Shown here one piece after another: positions 24,285 to 27,002 of a stretch of DNA of 64,000 bases (its first letter is position 1; the number at the start of each line of letters is the position of its first letter). Made by a program: the position numbers and the translations under genes. Source of the DNA: Patescibacteria group bacterium (lineage in GTDB: Bacteria; Patescibacteriota; Minisyncoccia; Phycocordibacterales; XYD1-FULL-46-19); assembly GCA_048617235.1 (NCBI GenBank), contig JBMCHT010000001.1:54043-118042 (forward strand), given 5' to 3'. A model generated the notes under the pieces. That model did no database searches. It saw only the letters and a list, made by a program, of their open reading frames with translations, and had not been told where the DNA came from.

Positions 24285-24432
24285 AATATTGAATTAAAGT
24301 TTTAATAATAATTTAAATTATAACATTTTTAATTTATATTCCTATGTTTTGAATAGAAAATATAAAAATAACACCCCGAGAAAGTTTCGTCTCCCGAGGT
24401 GCTCATCCTCTCCCCCACACCCCTCATATCTC

Positions 24433-24597
24433 TTAATTTTTGTTAAGAGACATAAGGGTACACGTTAATGAAACTCCCGCCATCACCCCCGCCCGCCAGA
24501 AATTGGGCGAGTCTAGGGCAGTGGCATCGAATATGGCTAGCATCAAGCTGATGCCAGCCATAAACGCCCAGCCGGTTTTTGTGAATTTAATACCCAT
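24433..24597 (-). CDS. Small (54 aa) hydrophobic protein encoded in a GC-rich islet. Alternatively a structured RNA.
   Basis: Strong RBS 'GGAATGGAGGAAAAG' 5 nt before ATG (24597). Product MGIKFTKTGWAFMAGISLMLAIFDATALDSPNFWRAGVMAGVSLTCTLMSLNKN. Two downstream hairpins, the second (CACCTCGGGA...TCTCGGGGTG plus TTATTTTT, ~24380-24420) an intrinsic terminator. Confidence 0.4.
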   Translation of the reverse strand: MGIKFTKTGWAFMAGISLMLAIFDATALDSPNFWRAGVMAGVSLTCTLMSLNKN

Positions 24598-24711
24598 CTT
24601 TTCCTCCATTCCTCTGTCTTATAGAGGGGTTAAAGTTTCAAAATCTACCGATAACTATAGCATATATTATTAAAAAAGTAAAGGTATTTTTAAATCAATT
24701 TTATTAAAAAA

Positions 24712-25121
24712 CTAATTTAATTTAGAAACATCACCGTTTAACAAAACAGGATTAAACCCAATTATTTCATCATGCAAAGTTCCTTGTGGAATATCATTAT
24801 ATAAATATATCTTTTTATTAAAACGAAACGCGTCATACATTTCAAGGAATGTTGCTCCGCCAATATAATTTTCAATATTTTCTTTTTAAAATTTAACACA
24901 AGTACAGCATCATTATTTTGTATTATATTTGTACTGTGTTTAATCATTTCACCTTTCCACTTTGCATGACTTTCCATACCTAAATCTCTATATTGATCTT
25001 CCGTCTCGGGATTATCGTAGCAATTAGGCATCGTACACTTATGTCCTAAAGACTTCAACTTTGTTTCAATTTCGGGAATATAATTATAAAACTTTTTACT
25101 GCAAATAATTAATATTTTCAT
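24712..25121 (-). pseudogene. Nucleoside 2-deoxyribosyltransferase-like gene disrupted by a frameshift in an A/T homopolymer run (~24885-24895)
   Basis: N-part 'MKILIICSKKFYNY...NNDAVLVLNFKK'. It continues in the -1/+1 frame as 'NIENYIGGATFLEMYDAFRFNKKIYLYNDIPQ...' with the NDT-like 'GxATxxEhG' motif. The ORF-track C-terminus is low-complexity junk. Confidence 0.5.
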
Positions 25122-25188
25122 ATGGATATTGTATCATATATTTTACAAAGTATTTAAAGTAAGCAGTATTGAAATTATATTTTTTATC

Positions 25189-25515
25189 TTAACTTCTTTT
25201 TTCCTCATCTGTTAAATTCTCCCTTAAAGAATCAATTCTTTGTTCTATTAAATCAAAAGTATTATCTGATCCACCATACATAAAATCTTCTACCGGATCT
25301 GACATCGCCAGAGCCAAATCATAAAGCATATTCAGTAATTGATTATTACTTAATCCTAGATTATCTTGTTCATTTTTAGATTTAGCTGAATAAAAAGCGT
25401 TATAAATTGAAGCGGAATTGACACCCTTTTTAAGGTTTTTCTCCATAATTTTAAGAACAATTTTTTCATTGTCTTCTGGAGTTCTCTTTTTTTCAAAGTT
25501 AAAAAATTTCATCAT
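25189..25515 (-). CDS. Hypothetical protein, possibly leaderless mRNA
   Basis: Extended -10 'TGGTATAAT' ends 6 nt before the ATG. No SD. No known domain. Confidence 0.4.
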   Translation of the reverse strand: MMKFFNFEKKRTPEDNEKIVLKIMEKNLKKGVNSASIYNAFYSAKSKNEQDNLGLSNNQLLNMLYDLALAMSDPVEDFMYGGSDNTFDLIEQRIDSLRENLTDEEKRS

Positions 25516-25745
25516 GTATTTATTATACCAAAAATTAAAAACTTTTTCTTGCTAAAAAAACATACTTCCGGCTTCACAAAGTGACCGCAGGCAAAGCAGT
25601 TTGCCTGCTTTACTTACTTGGTGATGAAATCATGTCCTTTGCTCTAACTTATTTCAAATCGCGAAGTGTACTTCCCCCATTTCATTAGACATCAACCTTC
25701 CTCTATTCTTTTGTAGAAAAATTAAACATATCTCTTTCCCATTCT

Positions 25746-26237
25746 TTATTTGTTTGTGTTTAAGAAAGGCAGGAAAACTTTTATCTCTTTCTTGTACAAA
25801 CTCCAAAATATAAAAATAATAACTATAGCGCCGATCAATGGACCAAAAATAGAAATTAAATTACCAGAATAGCCAAATTCAACTATACCCAACAAAATTG
25901 GGTATATTACCAAAAAGTAAAAAGTAAATAATAGGGCTCTTTTATTCAGTTTTAGAAAGTAGAAGATTGCAATCCCAGAAAGTATCATGAGTATAAAACT
26001 TGTGAGCGAATCAAAAGGAATAATTGTTGACATAACCTTAGATATTTCATCCGTAGTCATTATTGAGTACATATTAATATCCCCAATTACCCATTTTAGG
26101 TTGGTCCAAAATACAAAAACAAAAATTGCAAAGAAAAAATAACCTGCAATTCCAAAAGCCTGCTTGAAACGCACAAAATAGGAAAGCTCGGCAGAGTTTC
26201 CAGATTGTGATGAATTTTTTACTGTGTCATCAATCAT
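25746..26237 (-). CDS. Hypothetical 4-TM membrane protein
   Basis: Hydrophobic helices throughout. Immediately downstream of the XRE-like pseudogene. Confidence 0.4.
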   Translation of the reverse strand: MIDDTVKNSSQSGNSAELSYFVRFKQAFGIAGYFFFAIFVFVFWTNLKWVIGDINMYSIMTTDEISKVMSTIIPFDSLTSFILMILSGIAIFYFLKLNKRALLFTFYFLVIYPILLGIVEFGYSGNLISIFGPLIGAIVIIFIFWSLYKKEIKVFLPFLNTNK

Positions 26238-26241
26238 ATTT

Positions 26242-26470
26242 TATTTAAAAAAGTAATTCACGTCCTTCTCGTACATCTTTGCAAACTTCTGTAACTCGAC
26301 AACATCGACACGCTGTTGTCCTGATTCCACGTTCGAGATATACGACTGTGGACGCTTTAGTTTCTTAGCGACCTAAACTTGCGTCAATCCTGCCTCTTGT
26401 CGAGCTTTTCGCAGTTTTTCAACGAAATAGGCATATTCCTTTCTATGGATTGACTTCTTTATATACTACT
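26242..26470 (-). pseudogene. XRE-family HTH transcriptional regulator with in-frame TAG and no canonical start
   Basis: Minus-strand translation 'KEYAYFVEKLRKARQEAGLTQV*VAKKLKRPQSYISNVESGQQRVDVVELQKFAKMYEKDVNYFFK'. Typical Cro/C1 HTH interrupted by TAG. ~45% GC. Confidence 0.5.
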
Positions 26471-26642
26471 ATTTTCTATCGGCAAAGACAATATCCAAAT
26501 TTCCGATATTCTGTCCTCACTGCGAAGGAAATTTCTGAATGTGACCCTTCTCGTGCTGCGACCGTAGTCGGTTAAGGTTTGTAATGTTATTTTCAATAAA
26601 ATCTAGGAATTGGTTTAAGCCTTCTCGAGCAAAACAAATTAT

Positions 26643-26885
26643 TTATTCTTCAATAAGACTAAATCTGTCTACAATCTCACCACCAATTTCTTTTGTACCA
26701 CAAAAATCACTCTTTGCCCTGACCCATATTTGATTGTTTCCAAATTCTGGTGAATCGTATTGAGCTTGATAAACAATAACTTCTTCTGTTGTTTCAGAAT
26801 CACGAGCTATTTCTAAAATAATATATTCTTTACCTTTAAAATGTTTATATCTTTGTCCTTTTTTAATTTCTTTCATAAAATTCAT
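26643..26885 (-). CDS. DUF1653 family protein
   Basis: 'YKHFKGKEYIILEIARDSETTEEVIVYQAQY...QIWVR' matches the DUF1653 pattern. Confidence 0.65.
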   Translation of the reverse strand: MNFMKEIKKGQRYKHFKGKEYIILEIARDSETTEEVIVYQAQYDSPEFGNNQIWVRAKSDFCGTKEIGGEIVDRFSLIEE

Positions 26886-26927
26886 TATATCAAATATACC
26901 TTCTCGAGTGCTCGAACAGCGCTCTAA

Positions 26928-27002
26928 TTGGTGACCCTACGGGGAATTGAACCCCGGTTTCCACCGTGAGAGGGTGGCGTCCTAGCCGCTAGACGATAGG
27001 GC
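26928..27002 (-). tRNA. tRNA-Glu (anticodon CUC), CCA encoded
   Basis: Cloverleaf: acceptor GGCCCTA/TAGGGTC, D-arm GTCT-AGCGGCTA-GGAC, anticodon stem CCACC/GGTGG with loop CTCTCAC, T-arm CGGGG-TTCAATT-CCCCG, then ACCA. Confidence 0.85.

Follow-up and report, generated by a model that had tools for sequence, protein, structure and literature searches.

A variable and partly decayed gene interval at the 3' end of tRNA-Glu(CTC), in a conserved junction between murF and RmuC of a Patescibacteria genome

The window analysed here is a stretch of 64,000 nucleotides (nt) belonging to a 187-kb contig of a metagenome-assembled genome of a Patescibacteria group bacterium, with a GC content of 0.351, and shows between positions 24285 and 27002 a small gene islet adjacent to the 3' end of a tRNA-Glu(CTC) gene. 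This islet is probably a lineage-specific filling of a conserved junction, gained and decayed piecemeal at the tRNA flank, with no single integrative element behind it, and the patch has no collective function and is not working as a unit. A sequence-only reading had described it as a decayed accessory islet and as the remnant of an integrated element or prophage. The first description stands in that the interval is variable and two of its genes are broken, but a mobile origin is unsupported: neither recombinase, attachment-site (att) repeat nor hallmark genes were found in the islet, and its origin from a prophage or an integrative and conjugative element (ICE) is not demonstrated.

On the minus strand the gene order is FtsI, MurF (27052-28425), tRNA-Glu(CTC), the islet, a protein of 179 amino acids (aa), RmuC (22624-23682) and L21, and RecR, DnaB and CysS are located beyond L21 on the other strand. 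The RmuC and murF/dcw flanks are thus as first described, and all the islet genes are on the minus strand. The interval from the tRNA to RmuC contains the following features:

26929..27003, minus strand: intact tRNA-Glu(CTC) gene (ARAGORN; Rfam RF00005, 60.6 bits), whose 3' end (26929) faces the variable interval, as had been claimed.
26546..26908, minus strand: CTCGAGAAGG repeat in three copies, exact at 26899-26908 and 26620-26629 and with one mismatch at 26546-26555.
26643..26885, minus strand: intact DUF1653 gene (Pfam PF07866, E=1e-19).
~26241..26434, minus strand: pseudogene of an XRE-family (HTH_3) regulator (Pfam HTH_3, 3e-12 once the in-frame stop is replaced).
25746..26237, minus strand: gene encoding a 163-aa protein with four hydrophobic segments by hydropathy (4-TM, four transmembrane segments).
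25587..25608, no strand assigned: a single perfect 9-bp hairpin, GCAGGCAAA-loop-TTTGCCTGC, in a 230-nt spacer.
25189..25515, minus strand: open reading frame (ORF) encoding a 108-aa orphan protein, with no family match.
24712..25121, minus strand: pseudogene of a 136-aa family predicted to have the fold of nucleoside deoxyribosyltransferases (NDT-fold gene), aligned to 30 intact 136-aa homologues.
24365..24665, minus strand: GC-rich folding element of 300 nt, containing a 58-codon ORF (orf58, 24433-24609).
23745..24284, minus strand: gene encoding the 179-aa membrane-anchored protein, outside the islet as first delimited and within the same lineage-specific interval from tRNA-Glu to RmuC.

All the genomes used for comparison are distant, with about 45-56% protein identity. 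Among 5.8 billion proteins no MurF homologue exceeds 49% identity, and in the relative L007 DnaB and RmuC are 55-56% identical to those of the window (50-56% when DnaB, RmuC and L21 are taken together). The tRNA-Glu(CTC) of the window aligns end to end with the tRNA-Glu(CTC) of six relatives. In four relatives (L001, L002, L090 and L095) murF is followed by tRNA-Glu(CTC) within 0.2-1.2 kb. L088 shows murF, tRNA-Glu(CTC), a gene encoding 80-93 aa, YqeY, RmuC, L21, RecR and DnaB together, with about 1.2 kb from murF to RmuC and with murF and the tRNA convergent. L007 shows the order CysS-DnaB-RecR-L21-RmuC-YqeY-77-aa gene-tRNA-Glu(CTC), followed at zero spacing by the NDT-fold gene, and in L094 and L096 the region downstream of murF is without the tRNA. 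Judged by gene order and similarity, both flanks and tRNA-Glu(CTC) are an old, conserved neighbourhood, which also makes a chimeric join at the tRNA less likely.

The filling on the tRNA side differs in every one of these distant genomes, which is as far as the proposed comparison with related genomes could be carried. In L090, tRNA-Glu(CTC) is followed by genes encoding a TIR protein, an XRE regulator and a PIF1 helicase; in L095, by an ABC transporter, a DNA glycosylase and then YqeY; L007 shows beside the tRNA the NDT-fold gene, a gene encoding 155 aa and a Fic/RhuM gene, and L002 shows a homologue of the 155-aa gene of L007. Of the islet proteins, only the NDT-fold one is seen again in the roughly 90 related loci fetched, and the 179-aa protein is not at the corresponding position in L007 or L088, nor in any fetched locus. 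On these gene contents the interval beside the tRNA is variable. The 155-aa and 164-aa homologues of L007 (6443-6910, minus strand) and L002 (6134-6628, minus strand) are 43% identical, are encoded on the opposite strand immediately 3' of tRNA-Glu(CTC), and have a PD-(D/E)xK-like pattern in appearance, with only a weak VRR_NUC match (E=0.13).

The composition of the whole block is a mosaic. With the 63 long ORFs of the window as reference (GC content at third codon positions, GC3, 0.27 +/- 0.08), the DUF1653 gene (0.12), the 108-aa gene (0.21), the 4-TM gene (0.31) and the NDT-fold gene (0.19-0.27) fall in the native range, and the only outliers are the XRE remnant (GC 0.42, GC3 0.47, z=+2.6) and orf58 (GC 0.475 against 0.351 for the window, GC3 0.58, z=+4.0). 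Two genes are broken. The NDT-fold gene shows a 1-nt deletion in a run of A (plus-strand T5, 24883-24887), placed by the alignment of homologues, which splits it in two frames; the sequence-only reading had called it a frameshifted NDT-like gene, a label that is right at the level of the fold. The XRE gene shows the in-frame stop already reported, a nonsense TAG at 26373-26375 that is a substitution, and its sole start codon, ATG 26432-26434, is out of frame with the helix-turn-helix (HTH) region, which points to a second lesion, a probable 1-nt loss in the T run 26425-26427. The XRE stop lies 3 nt ahead of the 4-TM gene, and it is proposed that both were once a coupled gene pair, of which the XRE member is now dead through its two lesions.

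The broken state of these genes is reproduced in independent assemblies. Two Logan contigs (run SRR11308339) are 99.98% identical to the window without gaps, and the Logan assembly and a second NCBI contig show the same NDT-fold frameshift and the same XRE stop, so that three assemblies agree. Both Logan contig ends fall inside the tRNA-Glu gene (window 26949-26974). The likeliest cause is a branch in the assembly graph at tRNA sequence common to other organisms in the sample, a less likely alternative being strain heterogeneity at the tRNA-Glu junction.

The course of events that best fits these data would be the following. The junction, with the dcw operon through murF and tRNA-Glu(CTC) at one end and RmuC-L21-RecR-DnaB-CysS at the other, would tolerate insertions, deletions and inversions. 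A native NDT-fold gene, of a family often located 3' of a tRNA, would have been killed by the 1-nt homopolymer deletion. In the approximately 1.8 kb between this gene and the tRNA, the small DUF1653, 4-TM and 108-aa genes are intact and native in composition, and an XRE gene of foreign composition, presumably once coupled to the 4-TM gene, would have died there through its two lesions. The GC-rich, terminator-ended orf58 element would have been added, so that at least two pieces of foreign composition would have been gained, the XRE and orf58 pieces presumably by horizontal transfer, as two genes were being lost by homopolymer slippage and a nonsense change. The DUF1653, 108-aa and NDT-fold genes have TGnTAnAAT boxes 6-7 nt before their ATGs, and the small genes are probably transcribed separately as leaderless mRNAs. 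The order of these events, like the leaderless transcription, is inferred.

The alternative that survives best, and that is still rather unlikely, is that a block of the islet, most plausibly 25122-26928 with the DUF1653, XRE, 4-TM and 108-aa genes, is an eroded element or prophage which inserted site-specifically in the 3' end of tRNA-Glu(CTC), its integrase and att sites having since been deleted. Islander-type tRNA-linked islands carry a tyrosine integrase together with a fragment of the tRNA 3' end that has been displaced (PMC4383910). The islet is like such islands in its location in a tRNA 3' flank, in its variable, part-foreign and part-decayed content and in its XRE-type regulator, but it lacks an integrase, a tRNA repeat and any mobile hallmark, spans only about 2.6-3.2 kb and includes one gene of a native family. 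No ORF shows a match to a recombinase or integrase in Pfam, PHROGs or NCBIfam, nor does any fragment, in agreement with the absence of an integrase noticed earlier, and there is no room for one: the non-coding DNA of the islet totals about 720 nt, in pieces of 230 nt or less. Repeat finding and short-word BLAST of the tRNA against the 64 kb give no exact match beyond 10 nt (E=4.9, chance level), so that the local alignment proposed as a check gave chance matches only and the direct repeat of the tRNA 3' end remains absent, and no tRNA-derived repeat is present in the L007, L090, L002 and L088 loci, which show chance matches or other tRNA genes only.

The gene content points the same way. Matches to PHROGs are limited to generic HTH families and a weak one for DUF1653, the tRNA is the sole match of the islet DNA against 50,697 phage records, and PADLOC finds no defence system, only HTH matches. 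The 4-TM, 108-aa and NDT-fold proteins matched neither phage proteins, plasmid DNA nor viral contigs, a separate viral scan for the NDT-fold gene aside, in which this gene is present on only two of the viral contigs scanned. The search for phage or ICE relatives of the islet proteins thus returned generic HTH matches and 17 DUF1653 matches only. Three of the four genes of the block have native composition. The orientation of the tRNA relative to RmuC differs between the window genome and L007 and L088, and a local rearrangement explains the layout equally well.

Several observations weigh against piecemeal filling, most of them in favour of a single integrated element. Such an element, once decayed, would be expected to leave a block located, as here, exactly at a tRNA 3' end. 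In L007 nothing separates this tRNA from the NDT-fold gene, and by that comparison the 1.8 kb looks inserted in the window genome. The foreign GC3 of the XRE remnant and its tight coupling to a near-orphan membrane gene form a regulator and membrane-protein pair compatible with phage ancestry. DUF1653 is found occasionally in phage records (17 of 50,697, mostly unannotated, with 36-48% identity), which is likewise compatible with such ancestry, and the two exact 10-nt copies of CTCGAGAAGG form a direct repeat bracketing the DUF1653 gene. After the same tRNA, L090 shows defence-like cargo. Long divergence from the distant comparators also accounts for the differing filling as readily as recent insertion does. 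Small XRE/HTH_3 regulators include phage Cro/CI-like and antitoxin-like proteins, and the XRE gene of the window matches them in Pfam but is a pseudogene; the DUF1653 gene is a clear Pfam match, of a family that is not diagnostic of mobile elements.

The NDT-fold gene had been counted as islet cargo, a claim that does not hold. Its repaired protein has 2736 homologues, nearly all of 136 aa and up to 80% identical (against the 49% maximum of MurF), all of them unnamed Patescibacteria proteins without a Pfam domain. With the L007 copy it shares 77% identity, compared with 50-56% for DnaB, RmuC and L21 between the same genomes, and elsewhere its downstream neighbours are housekeeping genes. The number of homologues, a conservation above that of MurF, DnaB, RmuC and L21, and the housekeeping neighbours argue that, as far as sequence comparison goes, this is a native, strongly constrained Patescibacteria gene and not mobile-element cargo. 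The window shows no second copy of it.

By sequence, the family has no match in Pfam (E up to 1) or NCBIfam, and its profile has no significant sequence match in the PDB, with E values of up to 1-10 allowed in these searches. The family-based AlphaFold model (predicted local distance difference test, pLDDT, 96) shows as top Foldseek matches in the PDB the NDTs 8pqs and 6evs (E=3e-4, TM-score 0.54-0.60), BcmB, YtoQ (TM-score 0.66) and DNPH1, with probability 1.0, TM-scores of 0.54-0.66 overall and 14-20% identity to the solved structures. In this model the family has the NDT-type flavodoxin-like fold, the same predicted fold as the superfamily that includes NDT (8pqs/6evs), DNPH1/Rcl, the CMP N-glycosidase BcmB and YtoQ, but it lacks sequence-level membership (PF05014 and others), and the copy of the window is frameshifted. 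A GGATFxE motif is present, whose Glu is invariant in the 31 sequences of the alignment and, in our reading of that alignment, would lie at the place of the NDT nucleophile.

The context of the gene was surveyed in 81 loci carrying it, with the 737 other ORFs of the same loci as control, as follows:

Same-strand tRNA 3' end 0-18 nt before the ATG: NDT-fold gene, 10 of 81; other ORFs, 5 of 737 (cut-off of 20 nt); Fisher p 1e-7.
tRNA within 800 nt before the ATG: NDT-fold gene, 23 of 81; other ORFs, 34 of 737; Fisher p 1.5e-10.

The family is thus about 20-fold enriched directly after tRNA genes, and the first of these associations keeps a p of 8e-6 once near-duplicates are removed. The loci with 0-18 nt junctions are L007, L008, L027, L033-L036, L039, L045 and L085, the tRNAs at this spacing are Glu, Ala (twice), Lys (twice), Val and Gly, and the junctions show no tRNA duplications. 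In L007, the gene lies directly after the same tRNA-Glu(CTC) next to the RmuC block. Where no tRNA precedes, a -10 box is often located 4-10 nt before the ATG (22 of the 81 loci), and a Shine-Dalgarno (SD)-like sequence is present in only 14 of the 81; the gene of the window has a TGaTACAAT box 6 nt before its ATG. These positions suggest that the NDT-fold gene tends to leaderless expression, sometimes via tRNA processing.

Co-transcripts of a tRNA and an mRNA are known from mitochondrial tRNA punctuation and from the thrU-tufB operon of E. coli. By analogy, the NDT-fold ORFs which in relatives start 0-18 nt after a same-strand tRNA could yield a near-leaderless mRNA by processing, but this likeness derives from gene positions only, and in the window 1.8 kb separate the gene from the tRNA and it has a -10 box of its own. 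A tentative proposal, of low probability, is that the mRNA of the family may be leaderless either from a -10 box 4-10 nt before the ATG or by 3' processing of an upstream tRNA co-transcript, and that in the window genome a 1.8-kb insertion may have separated the gene from tRNA-Glu(CTC), followed by its decay.

The same survey bears on a different explanation, that the NDT-fold gene is a small mobile cassette landing repeatedly at tRNA 3' ends and that the islet records such traffic. Across genomes the gene is found after nine tRNA species, it is much better conserved in sequence than the host genes and its context differs in nearly every genome, a pattern that strong purifying selection and genome shuffling explain equally well. 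It shows neither flanking tRNA duplications or repeats nor a recombinase nearby, in about 70% of its loci the 800 nt upstream are free of a same-strand tRNA, and the two viral contigs mentioned above are the only ones scanned that carry it, all of which makes a mobile cassette very improbable.

Two side observations concern other loci of this family. In L092 (6899-7985, a 416-kb IMG/VR contig), an NDT-fold homologue of 54% identity is located in a nucleotide-metabolism cluster whose ORFs resemble, by eye, a dNMP kinase, a dCMP deaminase and PolIII alpha; a YqeY-like ORF directly follows the homologue, and L007 likewise has YqeY next to tRNA-Glu and the NDT-fold gene. In L013 a tRNA-Ala(TGC) gene (6510-6583) precedes the NDT-fold gene by 417 nt, and about 100 nt upstream of this tRNA, at 6408-6426, 19 nt of its 5' end are repeated exactly.

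An explanation about as improbable as the mobile cassette is that the broken genes are functional, through -1 slippage on U-AAA-AAG in the NDT-fold gene and read-through of TAG in the XRE gene, or that the lesions are homopolymer sequencing errors: a -1 slip at AAA-AAG does give the exact family-consensus LNFKKENIENYIGG at the right length and two of the three lesions are in homopolymer runs, but the slippage site has an imperfect heptamer and neither a nearby stimulatory hairpin nor an SD-like element, all 30 aligned homologues are encoded in one frame (36 columns checked), the XRE gene has two separate lesions of which one is a substitution, the three assemblies agree on the lesion sequence, and the other genes of the window read normally with code 11. 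Programmed frameshifting of the NDT-fold gene, as a candidate in itself, was judged unlikely for want of a stimulatory element and on account of the imperfect heptamer.

The remaining genes of the islet are small. The Pfam match of the DUF1653 gene reaches 71 bits, against a gathering cut-off of 23.5, and agrees with the earlier assignment. Its product is annotated by NCBI and Logan as 77 aa, with the second ATG (26876) as the likely start, and an extended -10 box TGaTATAAT (26884-26892) 7 nt before this ATG, so that from its sequence the mRNA looks leaderless. The CTCGAGAAGG repeat, at one mismatch or less, has five matches in the 64 kb compared with 1.9 expected, and five of 100 shuffles reach five. 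The 4-TM protein, whose four segments had been recognised before, is a near-orphan, for which 1.84 billion representatives contain just five related clusters, and has no Pfam, PHROG, PADLOC or phage match.

Two hypothetical genes had been listed, of which one is convincing, the 108-aa orphan, and the second is not. The 108-aa ORF shows an extended -10 box TGgTATAAT (25522-25530) 6 nt before its ATG. Over 13.2 kb the NCBI and Logan contigs show only two differences, at 25494 and 25516, both at the start of this gene, which result in E8K and in a change at position -1 of the ATG. The odd GC-rich hairpins previously placed at 25560-25600 amount to the single 9-bp hairpin, and its spacer is not unusually folded: it folds no better than shuffles (z=-0.66), as is the case for both long spacers of the islet, and the hairpin has no Rfam match. 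Rfam at relaxed thresholds gave no match in the islet or in two other oddly folding regions of the window.

The GC-rich small ORF noticed earlier, orf58, is present as a putative gene, and neither PGAP nor the Logan caller called it. It shows a GGAGG 5 nt before an internal ATG at 24597. The 300-nt element containing it folds at -114 kcal/mol (z=-5.9) in four long hairpins, the last of which is an intrinsic terminator (24370-24403), and has no Rfam match and no similar sequence in the fetched loci or in the rest of the window. A coarse fold scan of the whole window gives strongly negative z-scores also inside ordinary genes such as murF, and because of these comparable values the z of the element is suggestive and not proof of an RNA gene. 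Two readings fit it, a small gene for a foreign membrane peptide and a structured RNA.

Two other regions of the window have similar properties. A second element alike, at 50460-50860 on the plus strand (GC about 0.6, GC3 0.75 against 0.27 for the genome, fold z=-6.3), contains an ORF encoding 113 aa (PGAP ACOCU8_00585) with its own SD and terminator; this ORF has no Pfam, PADLOC or Rfam match, and the exact protein sequence is on record only for the source NCBI contig. The region 12240-13440 shows no convincing ORF from about 12880 to 13500, has 240-nt fold z-scores of -5 to -7 and a GC of 0.50 in part, lacks an Rfam match, and may be an undescribed RNA.

The islet, filled and decayed piecemeal at its tRNA flank, represents routine gene flux and decay in a reduced Patescibacteria genome and involves no new principle. 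Of interest to specialists, perhaps, are the short terminator-ended inserts, GC-rich and strongly folding, that occur in a genome of 35% GC. If the proposal of tRNA processing is true, the tRNA-mRNA co-transcript would be a bacterial counterpart of mitochondrial tRNA punctuation. The NDT-fold family is very conserved and unannotated, and on its predicted structure is plausibly a nucleotide-salvage enzyme in organisms unable to make nucleotides.

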